From positions 38,600,639 to 38,664,638 of the forward strand of contig NC_092698.1 in the NCBI RefSeq assembly GCF_964275005.1: 64,000 nucleotides of DNA, written 5' to 3'. The translations under genes were made by a program, and so were the position numbers. The notes under the pieces were generated by a model. That model had not been told where the DNA came from. It did not search any database and saw nothing but the letters and a program-made list of their open reading frames with translations. Of the stretch, positions 19,841 to 61,484 are shown in pieces. The first letter of the stretch is position 1, and each line of letters opens with the position of its first letter. This DNA comes from Diadema setosum (Eukaryota).

Positions 19841-19933
19841 TTGTGTTTTTTGACGTCGTCTTGCATTTCTTCAGTCGATACTGATATAGTAATTGTGACT
19901 GTTACAAGAACTGTAATCGTACGAGAGTCTTAC

Positions 19934-22000: not shown

Positions 22001-22003
22001 TAT

Positions 22004-26790: not shown

Positions 26791-26849
26791 GGATTCCCTC
26801 AGCAACATTGTAAGGAGTTGATTTAAATCTAATTTAGATACCCTCCAGT

Positions 26850-32515: not shown

Positions 32516-32710
32516 CCGGTCTTGGCAAAGTTGGTCCAGAATTGCATCATCATAACGGAGAGGGCGTTTTCCTCTTCAGTCATGTTGTGTCCTTTGACGT
32601 GGTACAGCTCATCAATGAAAGGGACGCCAAACACAAAAGTCATTTCTTCTCCATGTGCTGCGCCAAGCCAAGGAGTGTTGGGAGCAATTCCTTCGTACTC
32701 ATAGAAGCTC
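32516..32710 (-). CDS. ChE-like-3 exon 8
   Basis: Encodes KSFYEYEGIAPNTPWLGAAHGEEMTFVFGVPFIDELYHVKGHNMTEEENALSVMMMQFWTNFAKTG, then a gtaagt donor. Confidence 0.65.
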
Positions 32711-33839: not shown

Positions 33840-34285
33840 TTTGTAGGTACGTGGGTCATGAAGTACTGATAGACGGGCCCGCCGTGTGCTGCATGTGCTC
33901 TAGTGATGTAATCAGTTGGACAAACGAACATCAAATCTCCAAAGAAATCCACCACGGAGTCGAAGTAATCCGCAGTAATGTCGTCTGCAATACTCCAGTC
34001 GGTATACTCCTGATCTACAGAGTCGTATATGATGGCATCATCCAGACCGTTGTAGAAAGCCAGCTGGAATTGAATCGCTGCAAGGTAGGCAGCTCGGTCG
34101 TAAGGGGGCGGTGTTTCGCTACCCCTGTAGTCGGGAAAAGGTCCGTATAATAAGAAAGTCCCCTCATCCTTGTTGAAGCCGGCAATGATTGGTACATGGG
34201 CAAAGTCCCCTTTGCTGTAGAGGTTTTTTGGTGTATCTTCGAGAAACGTACCGTCCAGAGTCACTTGATACCCTCCAATATATAC
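33840..34285 (-). CDS. ChE-like-3 exon 7
   Basis: Encodes VYIGGYQVTLDGTFLEDTPKNLY...GFNKDEGTFLLY...FGDLMFVCPTDY...VYQYFMTHVPT, then a gtatgg donor. Anchored on ORF 33674..34393. Confidence 0.75.
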
Positions 34286-35066
34286 CTGAGCATTGTGGTG
34301 GCGGAAGAGGGTACTATTTACATAAAAAACAAATGATGTGTGAACAACTTGTTTGACAAAGCATAATCTTATATAGCCTATAAGGTGATACACGAAGTAT
34401 TGGCAGCTGATAGTTTGCGCATGTCACAATCTTTAACATTAATTATTTTAATGGTTTGGAGTTCTTGTTCGTAGTTACTGAAAACAGAACAGACAACATC
34501 ATGTGTTGGTGTGTACACCACTAATCTATCTACGAATCCTGCACGCACGCCCGCATACACACGCACACATCGACTTTTCTTATTGGGTATTTATTGCCTA
34601 CAGAGGCTTGGAAATTGAGCAAATCTGGAACCTATCTCCAGAAATAAGCATGAATTTAGTAACAATTATTTATGGTATGAAGCCAACTCCAAACAATTTA
34701 CAGCACATTTTAGCTATTACCGGCCGTGTCAATTTTATTCACATTATGTTTTTTAACATCTTGTGATAATTAAAGATGTTATAAGAATGGATATTGCAGT
34801 AAATTTTAGTAAATTATGAATTGAAAGACGGAATCAATGTTCTTGTCAATCCAGCAGAAACATTTTTCAAATTTCTTTTATAGTAGAGGTGATGACATCA
34901 TCGCCTCATCTAGTGTGATCTGCCGTCTCATAATATTTCATGAGAAAATGTGAAATTTGATACTTCTACTACTCTTCTTCTGAGTTTACCCTATCCATGA
35001 ACGCGTCCATGAAAATCCATCAACTGGTGGAGTGATTTTTTCTTTAGATAGAGAGTACTAGGGTAC

Positions 35067-35267
35067 TACAAATGGTGCACCGCGTTGCCATGGCAGCCAT
35101 ACCATCTCGGCGGTCTCTCTCAGTTTGTTGGCATCCTTCTCTCTGAGACATTCCACCAGAGCCTCAGAACTCGACGTGCTGCAATTCATGGCCACGCCCA
35201 CAGCTCTCGACTGCTCAAGCTCCCTATCTAGATCGTTGAAAGCCCAGTCAGCCACTGCCGTCCCACT
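35067..35267 (-). CDS. ChE-like-3 exon 6
   Basis: Encodes SGTAVADWAFNDLDRELEQSRAVGVAMNCSTSSSEALVECLREKDANKLRETAEMVWLPWQRGAPFV. Anchored on ORF 35058..35366. The donor is gtaccc, or gtagta 3 nt upstream. Confidence 0.65.
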
Positions 35268-35478
35268 CTGCATCAGTATTAACATAAAAAAGGAAATGAA
35301 ATAGGTCACTGGAATGTATCCGCAGAAAACATACACAGAAAACAGCAGATGCAGAAGTAAAAGCATTGAAACACTGGCACACCTTTTACTGGAAAGTCAT
35401 CATGTATGTAGTTTTTGGGAAGAATATCTAAAATGATGACACACGAAATTTGATGTCAGCCTTTAGTCGAAGGACGAA

Positions 35479-38400
35479 TGACTGTCGGGCTTCCACTGCC
35501 AAGAAAGCGGTATGCCACAATGATCAGCGCCTACACACCCGCGATGACCAGCCCTGATGATGTCAAGGAAAGGTTCAATGAGAACCTGCAAGCGACCACT
35601 CCCGCTGTGTCCAGATTAGATAAACTCATCACCCTTGGTGACTTCAGAGCTAGGGTCAGCGCCGACTATGCATCATGGAAAGGAGTTCCAGGGAAGATGG
35701 TCTGGGCAAATGCAATAGATGGCTTATTGCTACTGGAAACATGCGCTGTACATCAGCTACTCATTACCAACACAGTCTTTTGTCTACCCAACCGTAACAA
35801 GACGACATGGATGCATCCTCGCTCCAATCACTGGCACTTGCTGGATTACATCATCGTCAGACAAAGGGACAGGCAAGACGTTAGAGTCACTAAAGCCATG
35901 TGTGGTGCAGAGTGCTGGACAGATCACCGCCTATTGATCTCAAAGCTCAGTATCAGGATTCAACCACGTAGACGTCTTCAGGGAAAGAAGACATTGAAAC
36001 GTTAGATGTTTCAAAGTTGGAGAGAGATCAGGCCAAGCAGCCACTCGTTAAAGAGATCGACAGCAAGCTGCAACAACAAAGTTCAACTCACTGGACGATG
36101 AGTCCGACTGGATTCTCCTTCGCAGCATTGTCTATGACGCTGCCTCAGAGATGCTAGATCCCATCACATGAAAGCGTTATGACTGGTTCGCATTCAGTCG
36201 TTTAAGCATCGCCTTCACCGAGCAGACCTCAACGACCCGACATCAGCGTCCAAGAAAGCTGCTTTTTTTTTCAACATCAGAAGAAGCGTACAGCTGGAAC
36301 TACGGCAAATGCAGGATGCACGGCTGAGCGATAAAGCTGTTAAGATCCAGTCTTATGCTAATCGCAACGACATGGAAAACTTCTACAGAGAATACCGGAT
36401 CACTTCAAACAAAAATTGAAGATCTAGTTAAGTATCTTTATATCCCTTTATATGCACTGGACTTGTACTATCACTGCCTGGTAATTTGTATATAAATTAT
36501 ATGTTATCTCCTATGGCGACCAAGGATGACATCTCATAGCGCTTTTTATAGTGAAAAAGGCGCTCTTAAAATATCAACTATTATTAGAGCGCTCAAGATT
36601 TGTATTTGGACAAACTTCGTTGGGACTGTCTCCCCCAGTGCAGATGGAAACGTACTGATCACAGATCAGAAAAAGGTTCTTGAACGCTGGGCAGAACAGT
36701 TCAGAAATGTCCTCAATGGTCGATCCAGCTGCCATCAGCGAGGAAGCGATCACAAGGCTGTTCCAGGTTCCAACCAATCACTCACTTGCCAATATCCCCA
36801 CAGAAGCTGACGTGGAAGAAGCAGTAAAACACATATCTTGTGAAAAAGCACCTGGCGCTGACTCCATCCCTGCAAAAATCTGCGCCTCTGGTCGCCAAAC
36901 CTTCACTAGAAAGCTCACTGAGGTATTCCAATCTGTATGGAACCAAGAGAAAATCCCGCAGAATCCCTATGGATGCTTCCATCGTCCATTTGTACAAGCG
37001 CAAAGGAAATCGACAAGCGTGCGACAACCACCACGGCATCTCGTTGCTATTTGTTATCGGAAAGATCTTTGCCAGAATCTTGTTGAACCGCCTGATCGAC
37101 CACTTAGAGGAAGGCTTACTGCCTGAACGTCAACGCGGGTTCAGACAGGGTCGCAGTACAGTGGTTATGATTTTCGCAATACGTCAACTCCAAGAGAAAT
37201 GCCAGGAGCAGAGCTAGTGTCGGTATCTACACCACCTTCGTAGACATGACTAAGGCTTTTGACACCGTATGCCGAGAAGGACTCTGGATGATCATGCCCA
37301 AGTTTGTCTGCCCTGCAACGCTCATCTCATTGGTCAGACAGTTCCATGACTGCATCCAAGCTAACGTGCAGGATGACGATGAACGCTCAGAGCCCTTCCT
37401 TGTCATAACGGCGTGAAACAAGGCTGCGTCCTCGCCCCTACCCTCTTTAGCATGGTGTTCGCTCATCTATGCAGACAGATGTATTTCGTGAGGGTGGCAT
37501 CGGAGTGGACTGCAAATTTAGAACTGATGGAAATCTGTTCAACATACGGAGACTGCAGACAAAATCAAAACTCCAGGAGGATATCGCCCGTGACTTTCTT
37601 TTTGCTGATGACTTTGCCCTGCATGGTAGAACCCAGTCTGACATGCAGGAAAGCATTGACCAATTCGCCAATGCCTGTGACGACTTCGGTCTGACGATAA
37701 GCATAAAGAAGACTTTAGTGATGCATCAGCCCAGGGAGGTGGGAAGAGAGTTTTCCACCTCCCTGATCAGCCAGCTCCTGCAACCATTCACTATACACAA
37801 AGCCAACCATCACGGTCAACGGCGAGAAGTTGAAAGTGGCAGAAAAGTTACCTATCTAAAGTAGCATATTAAATGTTACGAAATATCTACATCGAAGAAG
37901 CCGCGAAGTCTCCCGCAGAATTGCCAGGGCCTGCTCGGCTGTCAGCAGACTCAGAGACAGGGTGTAGGAGAAAAGAGGAAAACCTTCAAAACAAAGTAAA
38001 GCTGTGCCGCGTAGTCGTCATGCCCTCTCTACTGTACACCTGCCAAACATGGACAGTGTACAGCCGGCGTGCCAGGCAGCTGATGTACTCCTTCCACATG
38101 AGATGCCTCCGAAATCTGCTACACGTAAAATGGCAAGGGAAGGTGTCAGACACCGAAATACTTTCAGGGAGACCAGATGGAGAGTTTTGATGCGATGCTC
38201 AAGTGCTCCCAACTCAGATGGGCCGGGCATGTACTTCGAATGTCCGACGAATATTTGTCAAAGTGACTGCTCTACAGTGAAGTAATGAAAGGCAAGCGCT
38301 CTCAAGGAGGTCAGAAGAAGCGCAACTGTACAAGGACACACTAAAAGCTTGGATGAAATGCTGCAGCATCAATCCTGACACATGTGAAGCAGCGGCACAA

Positions 38401-38652
38401 GACCGATCTGCCTGGCGAGCCGTGGTCAGCTCTGGTTTATAAGGCTACGAAGTAAAACGTGTGGAGGAGCAGGAACAACTACGGCAGCGACGAAAAATAG
38501 CAGAGCAACCTCTCAGCCTGGCCTACCTTCGGCATTTCCATACACACTGCACCAGATTTTTCGGAACGAGGATCGGACTGATTAGCCATCTTCGCACCCA
38601 CGGTATGTAGTGTTACTGGAAGTTATGGTCGTATTCGCCTGCGAAGGACGAA
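35479..38652 (+). mobile_element. Non-LTR retrotransposon (L2/CR1-like LINE), decayed, in intron 5 of ChE-like-3, antisense to the gene
   Basis: Plus-strand endonuclease ORF 35478..36005 (...LITLGDFRARVS...HLLDYIIVRQRD...). Reverse-transcriptase pieces: ISLLFVIGKIFARILLNRL, QRGFRQGRSTV, GVKQGCVLAPTLFSMVF, FLFADDFAL. C-terminal RCLRNLLHVKW. Multiple frameshifts. Flanked by a direct repeat cgaaggacgaa (~35468 and ~38645). Confidence 0.7.
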
Positions 38653-39603
38653 CATCATCATTGAATTATTGCATTGCCATTACAAAACAGTCATTGTATA
38701 CATTCAGGTCACTTGGAATTCTTTCCTCCTTTTATGGTTGTGTTGTTTTATTGGTGAAGTTGGAAAAGATAAATAAAGCAAAGAAGTTAATTGCAATCCA
38801 GAGGAGAAAAATGGGCAAGCTGGAAAGTAAATGGAAGGACATAATTATGTAATGAAGAGCACTCTTAATATGGCTGCATTATTTATATTGAGTTTGTCTT
38901 ATGTTGAGAAACATGGTGTGGAGAATTTGGAGATTTTTTTTTCAGATCCGTATGTAACAATTAAGAAGCAGAGAACACCAACTACCTTGATTGTATCAAG
39001 TAATGTATTTTTTAATATGATTTGTATGTTTTTATCTTTTATATGCAATTGGAAAATGACACCAAATCAAAGAGAGAGGGAGAAAATAAAAGGACGATTA
39101 AGCAATGTGAACAAGGAGAACTGAAACAACTGGCATGATAATAAACCGAGTCAAATAACTCATATCACGGAACACCCTACAAACATTGCAAAAACCCATT
39201 AGCGGGTTAATTAGTTTGTTCTTGTGAATGAAGCATGCATGTACACGTGCAAATATTTACATTGGCAAGTACAACGACAAAAGATATTGTGGATCGTGAA
39301 AGCATTGCCCTAACAGAGAGTATATTAGTTTATTGATTATGAAATTGAGAAGTCATGTCATGGTACTTGCACTTGAACACCGCGGAAATTCTCTGACTGG
39401 TAAATTCGCAGACCTGTACAACAAAGTGTAAGTGTACGTGTCTTGGTGCGGTATATTTGAAATTGTGTGTCACATTAATTTTCTCCGCTCAAATAAACAA
39501 TGATAATATAACAACAATATAACTTGATAAATAATGATGAGTCAACAGGTAATTATATTTCTTTTCTGTCACATTGATTACAGTTTTGTTAAAGAAAGTT
39601 TCA

Positions 39604-39768
<165 letters not shown>

Positions 39769-39920
39769 TCATGATGAAATAAAAGATACAAATTTAAGAA
39801 AATAAAAAAATGGATGGATGATGTATTCAAATATAGGCGGATAAGTACTACTAGCAATGGGTAGGTCCTTTAAGGGTTAACTGGCTGACTTATAAAGAGG
39901 AAGGAAAAAGAAAGATACTT

Positions 39921-39963
<43 letters not shown>

Positions 39964-40344
39964 GACATTTATCAAAAACATGAGATGCCACTACTCGAAA
40001 TGGTTAAATTAGAAAGATTTGATAATCTCACTTCAATACGACTTCATTTTCAATGAAGTACATGTGTTTGAACACACACACACACACACACATACATATA
40101 TCATAATTATTATTTAAAGCATTGTGTTCATGTACATATATCTGTCAGTCTTACAGTCTTATGGAAATAAGTAGACCCATATTCTTTTTAATTGTTACCG
40201 ATATCATCTGAGATATTTCCACTGAATCCTGCAATATCTTGCCACCCTACTGATCTGCATTCAATGTAAATATTCAAACAAATGGTTAATACATGAAATC
40301 AAGGAATAAATGCCATATCTATCCCAATATCAGGGTATTATTAC

Positions 40345-40422
40345 CTTCAATGTTAGTATAGACCCACTTGAGAGCTGCCACCTGATCCAGCATACCAACA
40401 TTACCAGGAGCTTCTTCATCAG
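40345..40422 (-). CDS. ChE-like-3 exon 4
   Basis: Encodes ADEEAPGNVGMLDQVAALKWVYTNIE. Acceptor ctaccag, donor gtaata. Approximate. Confidence 0.6.
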
Positions 40423-40824
40423 CTGGTAGAAAATAGGATTGAAATGAGTTATTTCTTGAAATACAGGTGAAAGTAATGTCAGGAATGACTAATCAGAACA
40501 ATGTCCGTATTTCTATGTATTACATGAGCAAATCGCTCCGTTTTATATTCATTAGTCATCTGTGGATCAATAGCGTCATTTGAACTATTTTTTGTTTAAA
40601 TCTTGTTTGGAGCGGGGATATCTGCCTACATTTTCTTCATATCTTTTCTTCTTGGGAGTCGATAGTTATTTTGGATCCATCGACAGGGTGTATTGACATG
40701 CTGTATCTTAATCTATAGCTTCTATATATTTCATTACGAATGCACTGGTCACACATGATCTAAACAGCTGTGACCAAAAAAAAAAAAAATCTTTTTTAAA
40801 TCTATATAAGTGATAGGAACTGAC

Positions 40825-40984
40825 CTGTGGTGAAAAAAGAAAAAATGTTCAGGCGGTAGTTGATAGTTACAATTATGACGTCACCAACAGAAACCAATGG
40901 GACGCCACTAAATTCCGCTGTCATCGCGGTTCCCATGGAGAAGCTGCCACCATGAATAAAGACCATGACCGCCGTGCCGTTCAT
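40825..40984 (-). CDS. ChE-like-3 exon 3
   Basis: Encodes MNGTAVMVFIHGGSFSMGTAMTAEFSGVPLVSVGDVIIVTINYRLNIFSFFTT. Anchored on ORF 40802..40993. Confidence 0.75.
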
Positions 40985-41285
40985 CTTTATCAATCAAAAC
41001 AATATAATAATTCATACATATATTACTGTATATCTGTTGGAATTATCATTCATAGCGCTGGAATTGATATCTATCACAGATAAATTATCACAAAGTAATT
41101 TCGAAGACATTAATCCTGATGGCTGATATTCTATGCTAAGAAAGATCAATGAATTTCCTCTCCATATTATGAAACAAGATTATCATGTTTAATATGCCAT
41201 CAACAAAACACATTTGTCCTAATAACTATAGACAAATAAGTGGTTAAAGGGGTTAGCATTATATTATTACATTCTGTTCTATTGG

Positions 41286-41317
<32 letters not shown>

Positions 41318-41666
41318 CATCATTATATTACAAAAGGAAACTCCGAAGCCATTCCATTTACTCTGAATGAAATTTCGAATATCCAACGAATTGTCATGTA
41401 TATGCTTCTAAAAATAAGATAATGCCTGTTTGTTTTCATTTTACACTGTGTTAGAAATAATGCTGGATATTTGAACTGATCATTTTTCTGTTTTTATTGT
41501 CAGATTCAAATCAAATTGTGCTCAATTAGTTCTTTCAATTGACACTGTATTTCATTTATGTATGAAAAAGATATTCAGAAATAAAAGCAAAATCAATCAA
41601 ATCAAACCCCATCGCTTTGCGGTAAAAAACTCTAGCGCAAAGACACTTGCCCTAGATTAATCCTAC

Positions 41667-41852
41667 CTTTGGATTAGGAGCAAACACGTTCAAATACAGA
41701 CAGTCTTCTGACATCTTCTCGACAGGAGGGAAAAAGTCAAATACACCTTGCTGACAGACAACTTCAAATTCTGTAGCGTTCCTCTCTCCTTCCCATGACG
41801 TCATACTTGTGGGTGGGGCGAATCTTTCAGGAGGGGCCGCATAAGGCACCCC
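41667..41852 (-). CDS. ChE-like-3 exon 2
   Basis: Encodes [62 protein letters not shown], then a gtagga donor. Anchored on ORF 41652..41849. Confidence 0.8.
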
Positions 41853-42470
41853 CTATATACGTTGGTAGAAATAAAACAAAAACACACAAAACACAACAAA
41901 TGCAATCAAACAAGGCTAATTCTGGGGAAATGATGCCAATGTCTCCATAGAAGTTCAGGCTTCGGTGAAGAGGGTTTTACTGTGGTTACAACATGACTAC
42001 ATAAGTAAGCTTATTTTATAACTGGAATACATCCCAAGCAATTTCATCTCATTGGTAAACTTGTCTGATTTGATTCAATGTTTTACCAGTCGACTCTATT
42101 AGTTTTTATTTTTTTTTTTTTGAAAATGGAGATAGAATCGAGTGGGTCGTGCGGCTGTCATTTTCTGTAAGTTAAGTCTTCTCTATCATGTGCTGTCAAT
42201 TGGGCATTCCAACACCTCGCTCAACGCGCTGCAAGAATGTCCCCTAGCTAAGAAGGAAGAATGTATACTAGTGTATAGGAAGTAAGGTTACGTATACATA
42301 CTTATGAACCAAAGGTAAATATGTATAGATACTAGTGTACTAAAAGATATAAAAACGTACAGATATTGCATTGTGTACTAAAAAATAAGAATGGTTACTA
42401 GTGTACTCAGTAGAAGTCAAATTGGCCTATACGATTCCACTTGAAAAAGCTGGCCCTTTTTTCAACTCAC

Positions 42471-42632
42471 CAAGAAAACGTCGACATCTCGAGTCTTGTT
42501 GATGAACTTGTTTTCACTGAAAGTAACCGTCTTTCCTACCAGAGTTCCTTCTTTCACCGTAACTCTTGGATTCTCAGCATTCAGTGGCTCGAAAATGGCA
42601 AAAATTGCCAACAAAGTCCACAATAGCTGCAT
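42471..42632 (-). CDS. ChE-like-3 exon 1
   Basis: ATG at 42632. Encodes MQLLWTLLAIFAIFEPLNAENPRVTVKEGTLVGKTVTFSENKFINKTRDVDVFL, then a gtgagt donor. Anchored on ORF 42462..42716. Confidence 0.8.
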
Positions 42633-48130: not shown

Positions 48131-50034
48131 TTTGATCTGAACGTGATTGTCAACCTGTGTACGAAATTTGGTGCTTTTATCACAAAATGCACAATTTTTC
48201 GGCTATGCCGCTCCACTAAAACCCATATTCCATAACGTTTCCACCTGCCCGCATGTATATTACACACTAATTGATTGTCTCATTTAAAGATGCACGATAT
48301 GATACTCATTGATGAGCTGATCATTGCGGGGTGGGAAGAATGGTAAAGAAAATAATCCCTGTCTCGAGCAACATGAAAAGACAGCAGTTGTCATGGTTAT
48401 GATTGATCTTAATGAGGATCACGATCAACTAGCAAAGTGACCAGTGATCTGGGCGTCTGATCGCAACAGTCAACATCAAAGTGAAGGCTCGCCATCATGC
48501 AGAAACTCTAGTTTTTCTTGTAAAGTTCTAAATACCCCGATGAGTTTTAATAAAATCAATTAATGCAGTTGTAGTTTAAAGTTGTAATTCATAGCGTTCT
48601 CATTTTATCACTGTTTGATTCATTCATTATTCGTTCACGCATTTTCTATTCATCGGAATACGATAGTGAATACATAACGTCAACAGACAATATCACCCAT
48701 TCTCTTCTGTTCTACATTGTAAAGTCTGATGACTACTTTTCCACCAAGGCAAATTTCCGACCGTTAGAGTTGGCAAATGCAAACATAAATGTGTTTATCA
48801 CAATTGTCATGGTTGAAATACATATGATCTTGTATACTCCCTCTGTGTTGACTGGTAAACGAACTATACTCTCTGTGTAACAACGTTAAATTTTATGTAT
48901 CATCATGAAAGTTGTGATGGTGACCAGGTGTATATTGCTCTGCATCTTATTGTTCCAGTCTTAAAGATTCAATGCAGGTTTTAATTGTATGACGTTATGG
49001 GAAATATATAATGTAGGAAAGTTTAATTTGTTGTGATCATGAATGTTCACATATCTTAGTTTTTTTTTTCTTTCTCTGAAAGGTGTTTACCTTTTAACCA
49101 TTCATTCTACCATTAGCAAATTATGACATCAACAAACTTCAATGTAAATTGGACATAATTATTATGTTGTATTACACACTGAATAATTGCTGGACAAAAC
49201 CAAATAAAAACAAAACTCTCCAAGAAAACTTCAAGATGACAAGCAGGAGGAATGCATATTGACAATTCCTTTGGACTATCACCGTTGGAGAAAGTTCTGT
49301 CTTTAAGGATACTCCAGGTCAAGAAGAGATTTAAACTACTCTTGAATCATTTGATACGTCTATCATTTCCACGACTTCTGAAGTATGAATAAATGATACT
49401 TCACGGCAGAAGTCTTGGTGCATTTGCTTACTCAGGCCTTCGTTTAGGAATTTTAATCTAAGAGAGCTGTTGAGGTTCTTTTATTCAATATCGGAATGAC
49501 CACATGAGTGTCGCGTGTCCCAGTTGTTAGAATCAGATGGGCTCATATTTAATACTTTAAAAACAACTTTAAATCACTCATCAAATTTGAATAACGATCG
49601 AGGAATAAAAAAAGAAACTTAGTCATAGATGAGGAGGCACAGCCATGCCGAGATAATCATGACCCATTATGACACATTACGACCAGTAAAGTCATGTGAC
49701 TAAAACAAAGGCTCGGGCTTGAGCAGTGAAGGTTTGTCATTAACATTAGACTTTAGATTGCAATTTACATTATACTCGGAAGTTCATGAAACGTGTCATT
49801 GCTGATTTATGATAATATGTCAATATCATTTATCGTTATTTCAGACACTATAGTCTATATACACTTTATGGACTAGAAAGTAATTCTGTTTTGTAGTTTT
49901 TGAGGCAAAAGTCACTAAGGAAACTAATTTAGGTACTTGAAAAAGTGGCTTGATTATTCAAGTAAAGACATGTAGATGTACTTCGCTTTAATCGGCGAAG
50001 TGCATTCGAGGATAGTTGTGTGATTTCTCAAGAT

Positions 50035-50150
50035 TAATTGCAGGCAGGTTCATTCTTGTATTCCTCGAACGCCTGCTGCCATGCTGTCATCTCCGTCTTC
50101 CAGTCATCATAACTTTCCCGCCATTCCTTCTCAGTGTCACTCAAGTCGTC
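50035..50150 (-). CDS. ChE-like-4 exon 10 (C-terminal Trp-heptad exon, including stop)
   Basis: Encodes DDLSDTEKEWRESYDDWKTEMTAWQQAFEEYKNEPACN, then TAA. Approximate. Confidence 0.6.
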
Positions 50151-50928
50151 TGGAAAGAGAGGGAGAGAGAATGAAGAATCGATGTGATTATCAAAATTAT
50201 TGCGCTTTCCTTTTATAGCTCACATTCGCATCCTGATTTGTCAACCCGTGCGCCAACCAATGGCAAAACTAAAAAAAAACGTTTTGGAGTTGCTTTGCTG
50301 CCGACACATGTTTTTTTTTTAATCATCTCATATTCTTAATGCATTCTGTGATTGATGACATCTGTACCCTATTTCATAAAAAAAAAGAACAAGATGGCAC
50401 ATTTTGACTCTTTACCTTAGGAGACAAAGTCGATGTAAAAGAAAAAATCGAAAAGGCGAAGATGAATTACGTTATTCCACTTATTGGTCTGTTTCGAACA
50501 TGAATCAATTTTAGAACTCGATCATTAGCCTTTCTTATAACATCTGTGCGACTAGTCTGATTGACGAATAAAAGCAGCCGTCTAGTATCGAGATGATACG
50601 AAATTACATGGTGCATTGCGCACCAAACTTTCAAATCTTTGGTTTATACAAAACGAAACTTTTTGAATGTGCAAAGGGGCTGGAGTCAGCTATACTTAGC
50701 TGTAGGGTTGATTGCTTAACGATATGATGATGGTTTTAGGTCATTGGTTTTTCCTAATATCAGTGAACAATTATGGAACATACACACTGACTGACAGACA
50801 GACAGACAGACACACACACACACACACATACACACTTCCATTCCTCCACACTTGAAAACCACGGATGCAACCTGTCAAATCTAATATGTAGTATAATGAA
50901 GTGATCATGGTCTCGAAAAAAAAAATAC

Positions 50929-51110
50929 CTGTAAAAGCCACGAGGGATGGGAAGTAGTGGTTCCAGAAATGGCACTGCCTGGCTCTGACGACCCTCCCTG
51001 TGGGCAATCCTATAGCTATCTCCTTGTACGTGAGTTCAGGGATCGTGTACTCTGGCCAGGTGTACTGTCCTTCCCACAGGTCTGAATCCATGCTCGGCTT
51101 ACTGGGGTTT
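50929..51110 (-). CDS. ChE-like-4 exon 9
   Basis: Encodes NPSKPSMDSDLWEGQYTWPEYTIPELTYKEIAIGLPTGRVVRARQCHFWNHYFPSLVAFT. Anchored on ORF 50771..51139. Confidence 0.75.
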
Positions 51111-51384
51111 CTACGATACATATAATAGTTGCTATCCATTAATGCATTAAGTTCTTGTTGTTTAAGTGCCTGATCCTCACACTGTCACATGCAAAATGGA
51201 ATCAATGTTTCTAAATGCACTCAGAATTTAACTGATAAGGAATTTTGTCTTCAGTACAATACAAACAAGAACATCATCTATCCAGAACTTTTCATCACAG
51301 ATTAGAGGTATTTGTAACTTTAAAAAAAAAAGAAGAAGATATTAGCAAACTATTTCATACCAGTGAATCAAATGACTGGCTTAC

Positions 51385-51579
51385 CCGGTCTTGGCAAAGT
51401 TGGTCCAGAATTGCATCATCATAACGGAGAGGGCGTTCTCCTCGTCAGTCATGTTATGTCCTTTGACGTGGTACAGCTCATCAATGAAAGGGACGCCCCA
51501 CACAAAAGTCATTTCTTCTCCATGTGCTGCGCCAAGCCAAGGAGTGTTGGGAGTAAATCCTTCGTACTCATAGAAGCTC
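51385..51579 (-). CDS. ChE-like-4 exon 8
   Basis: Encodes KSFYEYEGFTPNTPWLGAAHGEEMTFVWGVPFIDELYHVKGHNMTDEENALSVMMMQFWTNFAKTG, then a gtaagc donor. Anchored on ORF 51381..51695. Confidence 0.8.
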
Positions 51580-52701
51580 CTGGAAAAAAAAAATATCATG
51601 CTGTTCTTACCAACACAAAACAACGGATAAGAAAGAATACTTAAATGAGTTTGGAAAGTCTCTAACTGAATAAAAGTTGAAATTATTGAATTCACTCAGC
51701 ATGCCAATACCTCATCTTTTTCTCTCTAAAAGTGTCAGAAGAAAAAAAAAAGGATCGACATCATTTTACCCACTTCAGGATTAGGTTGCATCTGTTTTGG
51801 GTTTGAGAATGGCAGACAATTTTATTTTGTAAATTATGTATTGATGTGTCGCCAATTACAAATAATGCTCGTGTTTAACCAAGGTGGGGTGAGATTTTCC
51901 AGGCTTGACAGACCAAGTAACACATAATAATTTCATGAAATAATAATTATTACAAACTTCATGATTAAGTTCTGTGAGAAAAATGCTTCCAATTACGGGC
52001 ATTAGGGAAGCCTACTTATGTTGCTGTGTAACTATAATTATGACCGATCACAGAAGATAGGCAGGGCTAGTCAGGTAGGTGATAGAGAGAGAGAGGGGGG
52101 GGGGGGGTCCTCCCAGGTCTTTTGTCATAAATCACTAAATAAAACTCCAAAAGGGTATATTTTTGGTGTACATATTCTTTCTACTGTTCTTCAAAAATGT
52201 GAGTGAAAAATTGTGCCATCAAAAATAATTTCTCAAGTATTCTGTTGTTTCTTTAATTTCTGACGTATTTCCTTGTTTGTCGACTTTTTTCACTGTCTTT
52301 GTCGGCGACTCTGTTGAGAGCGTAAAAATAATATGTTACCTACTGAATTCAATCGATAAAAGCAAAAATAACCATTTTTCAAATGAAATTTGACCGAAAG
52401 TACATTTGCATTAAAATTGTACATGAATTCAAGTTTTTGAGCAATTTTAGGTCTGACAAGCATGTATATAATATTTATGCGTAATTTTAAAACCGCTCGC
52501 CCAGGCGACGCAAATTTGATCTCAGAACGAGCGGGAGACTGGAAAGAAAAAGAGTCGTGAAACATCGCGGCGATAGATGTTGTTGGTTTTTTTTTTTTTC
52601 GATAGTGACGTATCGCGTGAAATGTCGAAGGGGGGCTACCAGCAAACCCCCCCCCCCCCCCCGACTTAGTACGGGTTGAAGGAACTGCTAGTGATCCATA
52701 C

Positions 52702-53147
52702 TTAGTAGGTACGTGGGTCATGAAGTACTGATAGACGGGTCCGCCGCGTGATGCATGTGCTCTAGTGACATAATCAGTTGGACAAACGAACAGCAAATCT
52801 CCATAGAAATCCACCACTGAGTCGAAGTAATCCGCAGTACTGTTGTCTGCAATACTCCAGTCGGTATACTCCTGGTCTACAGAGTCGATTATGATCGCAT
52901 CCTCCAGACCGTTGTAGAGAGTCAGCTGGATTTGAATCGAAGCAAGGTAGGTAGCTCGGTCGTAAGGGGGCGGTGTTTCGCTACCCGCGTAGGTCGGAAA
53001 AGCTACGTATGGTATCAAAGTCCCCTCGTCCTTGTTGAAGCCCGCAACGATTGGTACACGGGCAAAATCTCCGTTGCTGTAGAGGTTTTTTGGTGTATCT
53101 TCGAGAAACGTACCGTCCACAGTCACTTGATACCCTGCAACATATAC
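52702..53147 (-). CDS. ChE-like-4 exon 7
   Basis: Encodes VYVAGYQVTVDGTFLEDTPKNLY...GFNKDEGTLIPY...YGDLLFVCPTDY...VYQYFMTHVPT, then a gtatgg donor. Anchored on ORF 52290..53126. Confidence 0.75.
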
Positions 53148-53598
53148 CTGAACATCGTGGTGGCGGAAGAGGGATACTATTCACAGACCAAAACTAATAA
53201 TGTGTGAATAACCTGTTTGACAAAGCATAATCTTATAGTCTATTAGGTGATACATGAAGTGTTGGCGGCTGACAGTTTGCGCATGTCACAATCGTTAACA
53301 TTAATAATTGTAATGGTTTGAAGTTCTTGATCGTAGTTACTGAAAACTGTACAGGCAACATCGTGTGTTGGTGTGTACACCACCAATCTGTCTACGAATC
53401 CTTCGCGCGCGTGCGCACGCACACACACACACACACACACACACAAGTTGAATTTTCTCAGCGGGTGTTAATTGCGTACAGAGGCTTGGAAATTGAGCAA
53501 AATTTGAAACCTAACTCCAGAAATAAGCATAAAATTTGTAAAATTTATATAAGCCACTTCCAAACAATTTACATTTTAGCTATTACCAGTGTCAATTT

Positions 53599-53644
<46 letters not shown>

Positions 53645-53938
53645 CATCTTGTGATACAGATGTTATATGAATGGATATTGCAGAAAAATCTAGGAAATTA
53701 TGATTTTTTTAGAGGGAATCAATGTTGTTGTCAATCCAGTAGAAACATTTTCCACTTCTTTTATAGTAGAGGTGATGACATTATCGCGTTATCTAGTGTG
53801 ATCTGTCATCTCATAATGTTTCATGAGAAAATGTGAGAGTTGATACTTCTACTACTCATCTATGATTTTACCCTATCCATGTCCATCCACGAAAGCCCAT
53901 TAACTGGTGGAATGATTTTCTCTTCAGATACAAGGTAC

Positions 53939-54139
53939 TATAAATGGTGCACCACGTTGCCATGGCAGCCATACCTTATCAGCGGCCTTCCTGAGTTCTT
54001 CAGCATCCTTCTCTCTGAGACATTCCACCAGAGCCTCAGAACTCGACGTGCTGCATCCCATGGCCACGCCCAGAGCTCTCGACTGCTCAAGCTCTCTCTC
54101 CGGATCGTTGAAAGCCCAGTCAGCCAGGGCTGTCCCACT
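53939..54139 (-). CDS. ChE-like-4 exon 6
   Basis: Encodes SGTALADWAFNDPERELEQSRALGVAMGCSTSSSEALVECLREKDAEELRKAADKVWLPWQRGAPFI, then a gtacct donor. The frame-shifted ORF 53938..54138 fixes both ends. Confidence 0.7.
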
Positions 54140-54344
54140 CTACATCAGTATTAACATAAACGGGAAATGAAATAGGTCACTGGAATGTATCCGGAGAAAA
54201 CATACATAGAAAACACCAGATGCACAAGTAAAAACACTGAAATACTGTCCAACTTTTCACGGAATGTTATCATGTAAGTAGTTTTGGGGAAGAACTTTTA
54301 AAATGATGGCACACGAAATTTGAAGTCATCTTTTAGTTGAAGGA

Positions 54345-54650
54345 CAAAGATATCCTGTCTCGGATAACTGATAAGTGCCAATAGTAACCTATAGTGAGTC
54401 CCATCACACGAAAACACCAGGATTGGTTCGATGACAACAACGAACGCATTTAGTCTTTGCTGGAAGAGAAACATTGTCTCCACCGAGCATTCCTCAATGA
54501 CTCGACATCAGCGCCCAAGAAAGCTGCTTTTTGCAACATCAGAGGAAACGTACAGTTGGAGCAACGGCAAATGTAGGATGCATGCTAAACGATAAAGCTG
54601 ATAAGATCCAGTCTTATGCTGATTGCAACGACATGAAAAACTTCTACAGA
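54345..54650 (+). mobile_element. LINE remnant (same family and same site as 35479-38652) in intron 5 of ChE-like-4
   Basis: Shares the 5' junction ttgaaggacaaa with the ChE-like-3 copy. Retains a ~300 bp internal segment alignable to 36160-36400, then rejoins flank that is alignable to ~38795 onward. Confidence 0.5.
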
Positions 54651-55360
54651 GCGCTCAAGAGACAAATGGGTAAGCTCGAAAGAAAATGGAAGAACATACT
54701 TAATGAAGAGCACTCTTAATATGGCTACATGTAACTACACAAGAAATGATTTATAGATATTGAGTTTGTTTTTTTTTTTGTTGAATAACATGATGTGGAG
54801 AATTTGGAGAATTTTTTTTTTCAGATCTGTATGTAACAATTGAGAAGCAAAGAACACCAACTACCTTGATTGTATCAAGTAATGTATATTTTTAATGTGA
54901 CTTGTATGTGTTTCTATCTTTTATATGCAATTGGAAAATGAAACCAAATCAAAGAGAGAGAGAGAGAGAGAGAAAGCAATGCGAACAAGGAGAACTGAAA
55001 CAACTGGCATGATAATAATTCGAGTCAAATTACTCATATCACGGAACACCCTACAAACATTGCGACAATACATTAGCGGGCTAATTAGTTTGTTCTTGTG
55101 AATGAAGCATGCATGTTATACACGTGCAAATATTTACATTGACAAGTACAACGACAAAAGATACTGTGGATCATGAGAGCATGGCTCTTACGGAGAGTAT
55201 AGTTTATTGATTATGAAATTGAGAACTCATGTCATGGTACTTGCACTTTAACACCGTGGAAGTTCTCGGACTGGTAAATTCTCAGACCTGTATAACAAAG
55301 TGTACTCTCTCTTGGTGTGGTATACTTGCAATTCTTTGTCACATTAATTTTCTCTGCTCA

Positions 55361-55651
<291 letters not shown>

Positions 55652-56326
55652 TCATGATAAATACAAAGAAAATCAAAAGATGGAGAGTGATAGACAGATG
55701 ATCATAATAAATGCATGGATAGATCCCAAAAAGATTATCTGGCAGACTTTATAAAGAGAAAGGAAATAGAAAAAGAAATATATATCAAGAAATATGTAAC
55801 TTATTATCAAAATGATGAGACTCAATACTAAAAAAAAATGGCTGAATTCAGAAATGTGTTCTGAAGTCGTTAACTCATGCTGAAACTATACTCAGTGTAT
55901 TGCGTTCATTACTCCATGTGGTTTGTTACGCTCAAAACCACTGTTCCATTTTGTACAAACGGACAATAAAGCTGACGACAACCTGAGGTCGAAAGATTCT
56001 ACCACCAGCCGGCATCGTGTGACATCTACTGTCTTCATTGTCTCCATTATATATATTATAGGTACACGTATTTCTGTTCAGTCATACAGTCTTATGGAAA
56101 TCAATAGACACGTTCCTTTGTTTTTAATTACTGACAATATCTGAGATATTAACTGTCAACACTGAATCCTGCAGTATCTTGCAACCTGCATTTGCTATGT
56201 CAATGCATGTATCTGCATTTACTATGATTAATTAAACAGATAGTAAATACATAAAATCAAGGCATTAATGCAATATTTTTCTCAATATCAGATACCTATT
56301 TTGCTCTGATACCTTGGTATTATTAC

Positions 56327-56404
56327 CTTCAATGTTAGTATAGACCCACTTGAGAGCTGCTACCTGATCCAGCATACCAACATTACCAGGAGCTTCTTCA
56401 TCAG
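56327..56404 (-). CDS. ChE-like-4 exon 4
   Basis: Encodes ADEEAPGNVGMLDQVAALKWVYTNIE. Approximate. Confidence 0.6.
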
Positions 56405-56817
56405 CTGGTAGAAAAATGAGATTGAAATGAGTTATTTCTTGAAATACAGGTGTAGAAAGTAATGTCAGGAATGACTAATCAGAACAATGTCCGTATTTCT
56501 ACGTATTACATGAGCAAATCGCTCCGTTTTATATTCATTAGGCATCTGTGGATCAATAGCGTCATTTGAACTATTTTTTGTTTAATCTTGTTTGGAGCGG
56601 GGATATCTGCCTACTTTATCTTCATATCTTTTCTTCTTGGAAGTCAATAGTTATTTTGGATCCATCGACAGGCTGTATTGACGTGCTGTATCTTAATCTT
56701 TAGCTTCTATATTCCATTATGAATGCATTCGTCACACATGATCTAAACAGTTGAGACAAAACATCTTAAAAACACACACACACAAAAAGTATTGTTTATT
56801 ATGTGATAAGAACTGAC

Positions 56818-56977
56818 CTGTGGTGAAAAAAGAGAAAACGTTCAGGCGGTAGTTGATAGTTACGATTATGACGTCACCGACAGAGACCAATGGGACGCCG
56901 CTGAGTTCCGCTGTCATCGCGGTTCCAATGGAGAAACCACCACCGTGAATAAAGACCATGACCGCAGCACCGTTAAT
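56818..56977 (-). CDS. ChE-like-4 exon 3
   Basis: Encodes INGAAVMVFIHGGGFSIGTAMTAELSGVPLVSVGDVIIVTINYRLNVFSFFTT. Anchored on ORF 56732..56986. Confidence 0.75.
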
Positions 56978-57660
56978 CTTTATCAATCAAAACAGCATTG
57001 ATAATTGCATTTATTGTGGAATTATTATTCATAGCCCATGGATTGACACTTATCACAGACAAAAGCATTTTGAAGAATTTGACATTCCATGCTAAGAAAG
57101 ATCATTGAATTTCCTCTCCATATTATAAAAAAGATTATTATGTGTTTGATATGCCATCAACAGAACACATTTGTCCTAATAAATATAGACAAATAAGTGG
57201 TTAAAGGATCATCATTATATATTATTTTATTCTATTCTATTAAACTATTATTATTATAATATTATCATTATTGTTGTTGTTACAATTATCATTATCATTA
57301 TTATATAATGAAAGGAAAGTCCGAAGCCATTCTATTTACTCTAAATGAAATTTTGAGTATTCAACGAAGTGTCATGTACACTATATGCTTCTAAAATAGG
57401 ATAATGGGTTAGGCATAAAATAATGCCTGTTTGTTTTCATTCTACATTGTGTGAGAAAAAATGTTTTGAATTAATCATTTATCTGTTTTTATTGTCAGAT
57501 TCAAATTGTATTGTGCTCAATTAGTTCGTTCAATTGACTTTGTATTTTATTTATGTATGTAAACGAAATTCAGAAATTTATTCAAAATCAATTAAATCAA
57601 ACACCACCGCTTTGTAGTAAAAACTCTAGCGCAAATACACTTGCCCTTGATGATTCCTAC

Positions 57661-57846
57661 CTTTGGGTTTGGAGCAAACACGTTCAAATACAGACAGTCT
57701 TCTGACATCTTCTCGGGAGGCGGGAAAAACTCAAATACACCTTGCTGACACACAGCTTCAAATTCCGTAGCGTTCCTTTCTCCTTCCCATGACGTCATGT
57801 TTGTGGGCGGGGCGAATCTCTCAGGAGGGGCTGCATAAGGCACCCC
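57661..57846 (-). CDS. ChE-like-4 exon 2
   Basis: Encodes [62 protein letters not shown]. Anchored on ORF 57592..57843. Confidence 0.8.
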
Positions 57847-58202
57847 CTATACATTGGTAAAAATAAAATAACAAATACAATCAAACAAGGCTAATTGTGA
57901 GGAAATGATAAAGTCAATGCCTCCATAGAAGTTCAGGCTTACGGTGAAAAGGGTTTTACCGTGCTTACAACCTGACTAGATATAATACATCCCAAGCAAA
58001 TTCACATCATTGCTAAACCTTTCTAGGTTTTTTTTTTTCAATGTTTTACCAATCTTGCAGTAATTTTAACGACTAGCGTTGAACATCTTTAGTAATCATG
58101 AATATTTACATGTGAAATCAACGACTCTATTTGTTTTACTTTGTTTTTGTCTGCTTTCTTGTTTGGTTGTTGTTGTTGTTGTTGTTTTTTGAAAATGGAG
58201 AT

Positions 58203-60470
58203 TCAGTTCAGTTCAATTTATTCATTTCATAAAATCACATATAAAATATTTACATAAATGTGTGAGTCAAAGGAGGAAATCACGCAAAAGCCCATCAGGG
58301 CTTGGAAATGGAGATTCCCTTTACAATATAGTTTAAAATCACAGTTTTGAATGAAACATATATATATATCAAAATAGAACTTAGATTAGAGACCGTTACA
58401 AAATCAACAATATATTATGATGGAAACAGGAAACAGGAAACAAAACAACGACTAAACCAATACAATATATTACAATACAATACAATACAAAACAAAACAA
58501 ACATGCACGGTATTTGTCAAAGGTTTGTATGAGAATTGCACAATTTTCATCATTCATTCATAATAAACAATCAGTACAGATTAAGAAAAAGCTGCTTATA
58601 TTGAGTCATAAAAAGATTCAATGTGTTAGCAGTTTTCAGTTTCATGCTTAACATGTTCCACAATTTAGCCCCTTTGTACTTTATTGAGTTGGACTGACTA
58701 ATTTTCAGACGATAAAATGGTGAAACATAGCATTGTTTATTTCTAGTATTGAAAGAATGTTTCTTGGCATGAGTAGAAAAATAGTCATTGAATATATCTG
58801 GCAAGACTGAGCGAACATATTTATACATAAAAATTCCAAGTTTGAATGAAATTCTGTCTCGAAAATTTAACGTTTGCAAGTCCTTAAATAATGGAGGGGT
58901 GTGGGCAAGATTGAGGGAATTTGTACAAAGGCGAATGGCTTTCTTTTGGAGGACCGTTAGCCGATCTAATTGTCTCTGGCTGGTCCCTGACCAGACGAGA
59001 TTACAATAGTCTAAGTACGGCAAGATAAAGGCATTGTAAAGCATCAACAGTGTATTTTTCGGGATTAACGAACGAAGCTTGAACATCATACCAAGTGCAA
59101 CACTTATCTTTCCATGGACATAATTTATATGGTTATTCCAGGACAACTTTTCGTCAATATACACCCCTAACACATTTATTGTGGCAACCTTTTCAATTTC
59201 ATTATTACCAATTTTTATAGAAAAGTTTGGATAAAAATTGTATATGTCTTCTGGAAGATTGAAAAATCATATATTTCGTTTTACTAATATTCATTTGTAG
59301 TTTATTTGCCTTGAACCAGTTGCGTCAGGATTGCACTTCTTCATTAACAATTTGGTTAAGCATTTTCTGATCAGAATGTGAATATATAATATTGATATCA
59401 TCAGCATAAATTACAAAACGAAAAACTTTCGATGAATTGATGACAACGTTGACATAAATCAAAAAGAGAAGAGGGCCAAGGATACTACCTTGGGGCACGC
59501 CATGAGATACGGGCATGAGGTCCGACTTAGCACCGTTGAACCTGGTGTATTGTTGTCGTCCACTCAAATAATCAACAAACCAAGAATGAGGCACACCACG
59601 AATACCATATAGTGTTCTAGCTTGTGCAAGAGTATGTTATGGTCCAGTGAGTCAAACGCTTTGCTCAGGTCAATGTACATAGCCAAAGGAATTTCTTTCT
59701 TTTCGAGGGATAAAATGACTTGTCCCAAGGTGTGTAACAATGCTGATTCTGTCGAAGAGGAGGGCCGAAAACCAAATTGTTCTTTTATGAGAAGGTCATT
59801 TTCGGACAAATGCTTATACAATCGTTTATATACAATGCGTTCAATTATTTTGGAGAAAGTTGGAAGAAGAGAAATTGGTCTATAATTTTCTATCAAAAAT
59901 CTATTATTCTTCTTATAAACAGGAATTACCTTTGCAAGTTTGAGGGAGTCTGGGACCTTACCTGGGCATAGCGATTGATTAAATATAAAACACGTGATCT
60001 ATGTAACAAAGAATAACCTGGCATATTGTAAAGGGAGGACACATTCGAGTTAAACCAAGTCTCAGTGAAAGCATGCATTGCGAATTTATGGCAAAGGCTA
60101 CTAAGATAGTCGGCTAAACATTCGTGCTTTGCAGACAAACTCTGAGCATTCAAATGAAATAGGGAGAACACAGCCTCGTTTTGACATTTTAGAAATTTGT
60201 GATTGAAAGTGTCATTGAAATAATAATTGCATGGACTTTCTAGATTATTGATGGAGACATTATCATCACTATTCATGCCAAACACTTCAAAAACGTGGGA
60301 GTTAAGGCCTGATTCAAATGAGATATCACTGCTAGAGTAGTGAAAAAAAGAGAATAATTCTCTGTGAAAATCATCATCTTCAAGTATGTGGTTAAATGGC
60401 AATTCGTTAGATATACACGGAGGACAGATATAACATTTTGGGTTTAAGTGCAGCGAACAGCTTGACATGT
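58203..60470 (-). mobile_element. Non-LTR retrotransposon (CR1/L2/RTE-like LINE), decayed, in intron 1 of ChE-like-4
   Basis: Minus-strand ORF pieces 59926..60555, 59564..59896, 59325..59594 and 58571..59173. They carry AP-endonuclease-like motifs (...FTETWF...) and reverse-transcriptase motifs (QFGFRPSSST, IDLSKAFDS, GVPQGSILGPLLF, VIYADDINI). At least three frame disruptions. The insertion is bounded by sequence that is contiguous in ChE-like-3 (42121-42170). Confidence 0.7.
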
Positions 60471-61322
60471 AGAATCGGGTGGGTCGTGCGGCTGTCATCG
60501 TCTGTATTAGAAGATAAGTCTTCTGAATGGGCCATTCCAACATCTCACCAAACATGCTGCAAGAATGTTTCCTAGTGTGCTAAGAAGAAATAATTTATTC
60601 TAGTGCACCAGTAAGTGAGACTGCATACTTGTGAACCAAGAGGTAAGAATGTATAGATACTGGTGTACATAGAGGTATGTAAGAATGTACAGTATGTCCC
60701 AAAAACAATTACAATCAGATTTTCGCATTGATAACACCCAATATGATTGAACTATCTAAATGCTACTTCAGGGTCTTAAAATATAACATCTTAGCTCTAT
60801 TTTGCAGAAAACTCCATCCGATTTGGTTAAGCGGTCACAGAGAAATGTGGATTGTTGTAAAAGCATGTCATGAGTCTGATTCTTCCAAGTTTAGTACTTC
60901 GATGATTTCGTGTGTGAATACACTAGACAGAACTTGGAGGGAAGAGATTCCTGACATCCTCTACAAAATTCCTCATTTCTCTTTGACCATTGAAGCAAAT
61001 CGAATAGGGTTTTCTGTAAGTTGTTGGCAATAAGTTATACTTTCATACCCTGAAATTGTATTTGGATTGATTCACTATTCTTAAAGCTATCATTGTGGAG
61101 AGTACCGTTGTAATTATTTTTGGGACATACGGTATAGATACTGGTGTACTAAGAGGTACATAAGAATGGGATACTGGTGTACTAAAATATAAGAATGTAT
61201 AGATACTGGTGAACTAAGAAATAAGAATGGTTACCAGTGTACTCAGTGGAAGTCAAGTATAAGCCTACAACTCCACTTCAAAAAGCTGGCCGTGTTTCTT
61301 TCTTCTTCTTTTTTTAACTCAC

Positions 61323-61484
61323 CAAAAAAACGTCGACATCTCGAGTCTTGTTGATGAATCTGTTTTCACTGAAAGTCACCGTCTTTCCCACCAGAGTTCC
61401 TTCTTTCACCGTAACTCTCGGATTCTCAGCATTTAGTGGCGAGAAAATGGGAAAAATTGCCAGCAAAGTCCACAATAGCCGCAT
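61323..61484 (-). CDS. ChE-like-4 exon 1
   Basis: ATG at ~61484. Encodes MRLLWTLLAIFPIFSPLNAENPRVTVKEGTLVGKTVTFSENRFINKTRDVDVFL, then a gtgagt donor. 162 nt, as in paralog 3. Confidence 0.65.

Follow-up and report, generated by a model that had tools for sequence, protein, structure and literature searches.

A 64,000-nucleotide (nt) stretch of the genome of the sea urchin Diadema setosum (contig NC_092698.1, forward-strand positions 38,600,639 to 38,664,638), here called the window and numbered from its first letter, contains four tandem genes, A to D, each of which closes with a separate short exon encoding a peptide with regularly spaced Trp residues that resembles the C-terminal T-peptide, or WAT domain, of vertebrate acetylcholinesterase (AChE) and butyrylcholinesterase (BChE). 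Gene models built from tblastn anchors and a search for GT/AG junctions place all four genes on the minus strand with 10 coding exons each (11 in the model of copy C built in this analysis), and all junctions are canonical (Table 1). The minus-strand open reading frame (ORF) fragments upstream of the tails carry carboxylesterase type-B/cholinesterase motifs, and the nearest relatives in a homology search are Diadema proteins annotated as 'cholinesterase-like'. The modelled proteins of A, B, and D match D. setosum RefSeq entries at 100% identity, and the four genes with their tail exon are already in the public annotation (RefSeq), in which the tail itself is unnamed. The corresponding locus of Diadema antillarum is collinear with the window at 80–93% nucleotide identity.

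Table 1. Coordinates of the four genes, their last introns, and their terminal exons in the window.
Feature	Position in window	Strand	Description
Gene A	50034..61484	minus	10 coding exons, 602 amino acids (aa); motif GESAG; identical to XP_072173751.1 'cholinesterase-like'
Gene A exons	61484-61323, 57846-57661, 56977-56818, 56404-56327, 55608-55490, 54139-53975, 53147-52702, 51579-51385, 51110-50929, 50149-50034	minus	
Copy A last intron	50150..50928	minus	779 nt, phase 1, GT..AG; lies between the catalytic domain, which ends in ...CHFWNHYFPSLVAFT/G, and the tail exon
Copy A terminal (T-type) exon	50034..50149	minus	TAA stop; encodes (D)DLSDTEKEWRESYDDWKTEMTAWQQAFEEYKNEPACN; PF08674 is the top Pfam match
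Gene B	31561..42632	minus	10 coding exons, 602 aa; motif GVSAG; identical to XP_072173758.1
Gene B exons	42632-42471, 41852-41667, 40984-40825, 40422-40345, 39725-39607, 35267-35103, 34285-33840, 32710-32516, 32242-32061, 31676-31561	minus	
Copy B last intron	31677-32060	minus	equivalent to the last intron of A
Copy B terminal (T-type) exon	31561..31676	minus	encodes (D)DISDIEKEWRESYNDWKTEMTAWQQAFEEYKNEPTCS; PF08674 is the top Pfam match
Gene C	12336..28521	minus	corresponds to XP_072174380.1 (576 aa); motif GQSAG; exon 1 interrupted, other exons intact
Copy C last intron	12452-13217	minus	equivalent to the last intron of A
Copy C terminal (T-type) exon	12336..12451	minus	encodes (D)DMSELEKEWRESYGDWKTEMTAWQQAFEEYTNESTCK; PF08674 is the top Pfam match; tail identical to XP_072174380.1
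Gene D	1317..9788	minus	10 coding exons, 601 aa; motif GESAG; identical to XP_072173527.1; most divergent copy
Gene D exons	9788-9627, 8567-8394, 7897-7738, 7214-7137, 6890-6772, 6029-5862, 5051-4600, 3546-3352, 2637-2456, 1432-1317	minus	
Copy D last intron	1433-2455	minus	equivalent to the last intron of A
Copy D terminal (T-type) exon	1317..1432	minus	encodes (R)DIDELEKDWQDSFSIWKTGLTGWQQEFEEYKQGSTCN; PF08674 is the top Pfam match

An earlier note on this DNA had described a dedicated last exon of about 38 aa in all four paralogs, with a Trp every seven residues (W-x6-W-x6-W) and a Cys close to the C-terminus, and this description holds for every copy. Translation of the window shows that the tail peptides at all four loci are encoded on the minus strand (DDLSDTEKEWRESYDDWKTEMTAWQQAFEEYKNEPACN in A, DDISDIEKEWRESYNDWKTEMTAWQQAFEEYKNEPTCS in B, DDMSELEKEWRESYGDWKTEMTAWQQAFEEYTNESTCK in C, and RDIDELEKDWQDSFSIWKTGLTGWQQEFEEYKQGSTCN in D), where each terminal exon comprises 116 nt, stop codon included, and specifies 38 residues with the Trp heptad in place and Cys as the penultimate residue (position 37/38). 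Plus-strand translation at the same coordinates was rejected, as it gave meaningless peptides whereas the minus strand yields the reported ones. The exon positions given in the note are exact for B, C, and D, while that of A (50035-50150) lies one base too high; the AG acceptor of copy A occupies 50151-50150, and base 50150 is its G. A polypyrimidine tract and CAG stand immediately 5' of every tail exon, which closes with TAA or TGA, and the exon is entered in intron phase 1 in all four copies, so that its first residue is a split codon: G/AC (Asp) in A, B, and C, and A/GA (Arg) in D, which becomes Gly if the junction is read straight across. Six-frame translation of the whole window contains exactly four matches to W-x6-W-x6-W, all of them in the tail exons, against a mean of 0.055 and a maximum of 1 in 200 shuffles of the window.

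No conserved alternative terminal exon of the H or R type was detected in the last introns or downstream of the four copies, and in this the urchin genes differ from vertebrate AChE. H-type exons, which would encode a glycosylphosphatidylinositol (GPI) signal, and read-through exons are thus unsupported, the read-through peptides being short and different between copies. The sole 'hydrophobic' H-type candidate, in copy A, is the product of a (GT)n/(CTGT)n microsatellite at 50770-50870, within the last intron just 3' of the penultimate exon; read-through of this repeat would give a pseudo-hydrophobic peptide, rich in Cys and Val, which could be taken for an H-type tail; the repeat is not conserved in the other copies.

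The 116-nt exons very probably encode genuine homologues of the cholinesterase T-peptide, inherited with the same exon boundary from a cholinesterase-type ancestor common to echinoderms and vertebrates, and the resemblance proposed in the earlier note can accordingly be read as true homology on the combined evidence of Pfam, PDB and profile matches, a gapless full-length alignment, and a shared exon boundary. The comparison with PF08674 (AChE_tetra) that the note had suggested returned this family as the best in Pfam for 4/4 tails, with E values of 2.6e-5 to 1.4e-4 and 21.9–24.3 bits, yet just under the gathering cutoff of 25 bits. As a result of usually falling just below this cutoff, the tail is left unnamed in annotation, although for a few echinoderm members a precomputed PF08674 label already exists. 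Among PDB sequences, the single tails match 1VZJ best, a crystal structure that combines the human WAT domain and the PRAD of ColQ. A profile made from the tails of echinoids and holothurians (36 sequences, with W10, W17, W24, and C37 invariant in 36/36) matched 1VZJ at 5.5e-10, human AChE at 7.5e-8, Torpedo AChE at 8.8e-7, and human BChE at 1.9e-6, and in the PDB it found AChE/BChE T-peptides only, the next match having E=0.064. In an exhaustive comparison with 1.84 billion representative proteins the same profile gave 53 matches, the genuine ones among which are all C-termini, or fragments, of cholinesterase-type esterases, vertebrate AChE/BChE T exons included. WAT-like tails on non-esterases were considered and rejected, since the three proteins matched in several stretches (P0124, P0133, and P0156) are low-complexity tandem repeats of a Trp heptad; similarly, matches that seemed internal (P0131 and P0161-P0163) come from mis-predicted fragments in which real cholinesterase T exons are embedded.

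The position of the tail within the protein gives the same picture. Copy A aligns over its full length with Torpedo AChE-T (6EUC) at E ~1e-99, and the alignment is free of gaps from the last catalytic Cys (the equivalent of Cys521) through the tail Cys. The human WAT domain comprises residues 544-583 (PMC2212707); its first residue, D544, and the first residue of the Torpedo T-peptide fall opposite the split codon of the urchin exon boundary, with 15 residues between the last catalytic Cys and the boundary in the urchin and Torpedo alike. The human read-through peptide begins with Gly (PMC6225273) and the T-peptide, in the alignment, with Asp; a phase-1 boundary would therefore fit the human gene as well, as Gly and Asp codons are both G-initial. 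The WAT domain is defined by seven conserved aromatic residues, among them three evenly spaced Trp, the WWW motif (PMC1285061), and six of the seven occupy identical positions in the urchin tails (W10, W17, W24, and the aromatics at 14, 28, and 31). In the alignment, Cys37 of the tail shares its column with C580 of the human and C572 of the Torpedo enzyme, and Met21 is also conserved, being Leu in copy D alone. Like the urchin tail, the vertebrate peptide (PF08674; 1VZJ, [WAT]4-PRAD; 6I2T) has about 38-40 residues, an exon of its own at the end of the gene, and a place directly after the catalytic domain, while the urchin tail is much more acidic and has a single residue after its Cys.

Convergence, by which an unrelated Trp-rich amphipathic helix would have come to resemble a T-peptide by chance, could draw on an identity to the human T-peptide of only ~27% (10/37 positions), on the sub-threshold Pfam scores of single sequences, and on the existence of Trp-heptad tandem repeats in unrelated proteins such as P0124 and P0156. 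Against it stand the profile match to 1VZJ with cholinesterases as the only matches, the homologous domain upstream, the shared exon boundary with its equal spacing from the Cys, the gapless alignment, the six of seven aromatics and the Cys in register, and the excess of the motif in the window over the number expected, and this explanation is so improbable as to be effectively refuted already.

A model of copy A as a monomer, calculated with AlphaFold2 from an alignment of 65 homologues, is a confident one, with a predicted local distance difference test score (pLDDT) of 93.2 and a predicted template modelling score (pTM) of 0.90. In it, residues 569-596 (tail positions 5-32) form a single continuous helix of 28 residues after the last helix of the core, and the tail is accordingly predicted to be a free-standing amphipathic helix. 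W10, Y/F14, W17, W24, F28, and Y31 are predicted to share one face, with Cys37 just past the helix; all tail aromatics lie inside an arc of 120 degrees on one side. The hydrophobic moments of the four tails stand at z = 2.3-2.8 relative to shuffled sequences, compared with 1.6 for the human and 2.1 for the Torpedo peptide. The helical-wheel check proposed in the earlier note thus points to an amphipathic helix, which would be a further likeness to the vertebrate T-peptide, and neither ground that the note had named for abandoning its proposal, a want of similarity to the domain or of such a helix, applies, because both were found. In Foldseek, the structures nearest to the whole model are those of AChE and BChE; human AChE 4BDT and the full-length BChE tetramer 6I2T are among them, both with alignments spanning ~595 columns, and human CES1 follows at rank 31.

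Conservation of the tail in all copies, the diverged one included, had been taken in the earlier note as a sign of function, and the substitution pattern bears this out. The DNA of the tail exon is 65-67% identical between copy D and the others, while the flanks have decayed to background, with 40-42% in the 150 nt of upstream intron and 15-31% in the 3' untranslated region; for A and D the three values are 65%, 40%, and 31%. For the divergent pairs, the proportion of nonsynonymous differences (pN) in the tail exon is 0.20-0.27, and synonymous sites are saturated (proportion of synonymous differences, pS, 0.69-0.85). The ratio of nonsynonymous to synonymous rates (dN/dS) in the tail is 0.18-0.30 for the informative pairs, which resembles the 0.10-0.29 of the catalytic domain. 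The tail exon is under purifying selection, beyond what recent duplication alone would leave. A decaying, functionless relic might be suspected from the A/B pair, whose tail dN/dS is ~0.9 (from 6 differences only), and from copy C, whose exon 1 is interrupted and whose RefSeq model lacks a signal peptide; this explanation has next to no probability, as it is contradicted by the strong purifying selection in the older pairs, by reading frames, splice sites, and stops that are intact in 4/4 exons, and by the three Trp and the Cys, which never vary among the 36 tails of two echinoderm classes.

Copy C shows several peculiarities of its own. Its exon 1 (21935-28521, minus strand) is split, such that the half encoding the signal peptide (...DPKVNV) ends at ~28435 and the second half (GKTVRFSE...) begins at ~22009, with a loss of ~6 codons and a gap of ~6.4 kb (28435..22009). 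The element in this gap has terminal inverted repeats of ~515 nt, with arms at 22026-22541 and 26263-26771 that are 89-100% complementary, and internal tandem repeats of ~216 nt at 24380-25145. The RefSeq model XP_072174380.1 begins MSKVCKPTIGKTV... and is without a signal peptide, and copy C may therefore be non-secreted or a young pseudogene. The last two exons of copy C (12336-13399) have 84-87% DNA identity to A and B and a tail pN of 0.09, while its catalytic part is far more diverged from these copies (pN 0.25), which suggests that the 3' ends of the tandem copies either undergo gene conversion or are much more strongly constrained.

Sequence and fold place the proteins that carry the tail in the cholinesterase clade, and they may be described as cholinesterase-like carboxylesterases with a T-type tail. 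In Torpedo numbering, all four copies keep the Ser200-Glu327-His440 triad together with the disulfides C67-C94, C254-C265, and C402-C521; a signal peptide is retained in A, B, and D, and Gly119 of the oxyanion hole is replaced by Ser in B and D. The catalytic domain looks like a secreted and catalytically competent alpha/beta-hydrolase of this clade. Glu199, the residue before the catalytic Ser, is Val in B (GVSAG; 39607-39725, minus strand) and Gln in C (GQSAG; 16510-16628, minus strand), against the canonical GESAG of A and D; the substitutions of B and C also occur in the D. antillarum orthologues and are therefore fixed features.

The choline site is altered far more. In true cholinesterases, the choline-binding Trp84 sits in the Cys67-Cys94 Omega-loop, and the gorge is lined by 14 aromatics in AChE and 8 in BChE, including Trp279 of the peripheral site (PMC3045457). 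All four urchin copies have an Omega-loop shortened by 9-13 residues, with Trp84 deleted, a condition common to 120/120 of the closest homologues. In copy A, W233 is the only identical gorge residue and positions 114, 288, and 432 remain aromatic, while Y70, W84, Y121, Y130, W279, F290, F330, F331, Y334, and Y442 are lost, so that the urchin domain differs from vertebrate AChE/BChE in lacking Trp84, Trp279, and most of the gorge aromatics. The host proteins are consequently probably not true cholinesterases, and because Trp84 and most gorge aromatics are gone, general carboxylesterases that kept an assembly tail are more likely than synaptic acetylcholinesterases. Nematode enzymes of the ACE-1 type provide a further comparison, as ACE-1 has a T-like aromatic C-terminal peptide on a non-vertebrate cholinesterase, so that the tail is ancient; these are bona fide acetylcholinesterases with the choline-binding Trp, which the urchin proteins lack. 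Liver-type carboxylesterases such as human CES1 belong, like the urchin proteins, to the type B alpha/beta-hydrolases; both have the Ser-Glu-His triad and lack the choline-binding Trp. The CES enzymes close with an HXEL signal for retrieval to the endoplasmic reticulum (ER) and, unlike the urchin proteins, bear no WAT tail, and the urchin proteins are nearer to AChE/BChE by both sequence and structure.

The window genes belong to the echinoderm 'cholinesterase-like / cholinesterase 1' family, represented by RefSeq models of Diadema, Strongylocentrotus, Lytechinus, and Apostichopus, and the tail is common to most of this large gene family. Among the 120 closest homologues, ~20 of which come from D. 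antillarum alone, 52 (echinoids and holothurians) have W-x6-W-x6-W with a Cys 1-3 residues from the end, and 39 (asteroids, ophiuroids, and crinoids) have a W-x6-W-x7-W variant, often without the Cys; the hemichordate relatives have no Trp tail. The asteroid, ophiuroid, and crinoid members are like the urchin copies in the catalytic domain, in the homology of the tail, and in the first two Trp, the Phe, and the Tyr, and differ in that the third Trp stands one residue further from the second (WKYTDMxxW). Cys is missing from the asteroid tails listed (P0045 and P0058-P0062), and the crinoid variants are P0063, P0065, P0074, and P0075. Several tails of Amphiura filiformis (P0050-P0054, P0070, and P0152) run on to ...SSRDEL or ...RNEL, resembling ER-retrieval signals; the pairing of a KDEL-type end with a WAT-like helix, as in these ophiuroids, would be an unusual architecture. 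In addition, a WAT-tailed homologue of 616 aa from a JGI metagenome contig (P0164) has GSLAG at the active site, with the nucleophilic Ser replaced and the Trp tail and terminal Cys kept, and is presumably a non-catalytic cholinesterase-like protein.

By analogy with the vertebrate WAT/PRAD system (PMC1285061, PMC2212707, PMC5943944), the tail helix would act as an autonomous oligomerisation module. Cys37 could form inter-subunit disulfides that give dimers, four tail helices could wind about a polyproline-II segment supplied by a protein or peptide partner, forming a supercoil in which Trp stacks on Pro, and the resulting tetramers could be tethered or held in circulation. On this basis it is conceivable, at the level of a tentative proposal, that the genes form part of a large echinoderm radiation of secreted carboxylesterases in which the choline site was lost, the WAT tail was kept under selection, and the enzymes still assemble 4:1 on a proline-rich organiser.

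Several observations weigh against homology or against assembly of this kind. Each single tail scores below the Pfam gathering cutoff (21.9-24.3 vs 25 bits), tail position 20 is Glu or Gly where vertebrates have Tyr, and the Cys stands at -2 from the end vs -4 in vertebrates, because the urchin peptide is shorter. The pLDDT of the tail helix is only 74-82, and the model, being a monomer, is silent on assembly. The tailed enzymes lack Trp84, so that their physiological context may or may not be cholinergic. Finally, no PRAD partner was found: a human PRiMA probe gave 194 matches in a word-index search, of which the 120 listed were all vertebrate, and ColQ was not searched for. The probe is valid, being 97% identical to a primate PRiMA, and the negative is weak because PRADs are short and of low complexity and because polyproline or unrelated peptides can organise tetramers. 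Plain polyproline suffices for the vertebrate enzymes (PMC1285061), and unrelated proline-rich peptides also serve, for example lamellipodin for BChE (PMC5943944).

A homologous T-peptide might also work without any proline-rich organiser, by forming disulfide homodimers only, by weak amphiphilic association with membranes, or as a signal for ER quality control or retention that limits secretion. In work from the Massoulie group, vertebrate T-peptides reportedly limit secretion through ER quality control or retention when a PRAD is absent. Such an organiser-free role is unlikely, although it would agree with the lack of an echinoderm PRiMA among the matches listed, with the non-canonical nature of the host enzymes, and with the tails of the other classes, in which W-x6-W-x7-W breaks the heptad, the Cys is often gone, and some ophiuroid members have RDEL/NEL-type ends; these variants suggest more than one use of the tail. 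It is countered by the invariance of the three Trp and Cys37 in echinoids and holothurians, with exactly the vertebrate spacing that is the signature of the PRAD-stacking surface (PMC1285061), and the missing ColQ/PRiMA orthologue tells little in its favour, since polyproline alone can organise (PMC1285061).

Other features of the locus concern its extent and its introns. In D. antillarum, a further COesterase gene encoding 598 aa follows the orthologues of copies C and D in the same orientation (JBFRCO010000276.1, 2094515-2123528), and the tandem array therefore continues beyond position 1 of the window. Two introns, intron 5 of copy B (35478-38285, plus strand) and intron 1 of copy A (58571-60555, minus strand), contain degraded retrotransposon ORFs that match reverse transcriptase (RVT_1), which accounts for the unusually long introns of these two copies.

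No description of T-type tails in echinoderms was found in the full-text literature searched, and the vertebrate WAT/PRAD system is well described (PMC1285061, PMC2212707, PMC5943944, PMC3045457). The finding may be regarded as moderately new, in that the genes are already in RefSeq, the tail is family-wide in echinoderms, and the mechanism is transferred by homology; a mildly new point is a non-canonical echinoderm esterase family that has lost Trp84 and retains the cholinesterase assembly tail under selection. As PF08674 narrowly misses these tails, most echinoderm models carry no label for the domain. Echinoderms are added here to the known range of the T-peptide/WAT module, its exon boundary being unchanged, which supports the view that the tail exon is ancient in deuterostomes and that its evolution is semi-independent of that of the catalytic domain. 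A tail maintained by selection on enzymes without a choline site indicates that assembly and anchoring are separable from the hydrolysis of acetylcholine, and its retention on esterases without Trp84 implies either an echinoderm organiser or a PRAD-independent role. If 4:1 assembly around an organiser is true, WAT/PRAD assembly and anchoring would predate vertebrates, echinoderms would use them for non-cholinergic enzymes, and tandem paralogues with GESAG, GVSAG, and GQSAG sites could possibly mix into heterotetramers on an echinoderm PRAD protein.

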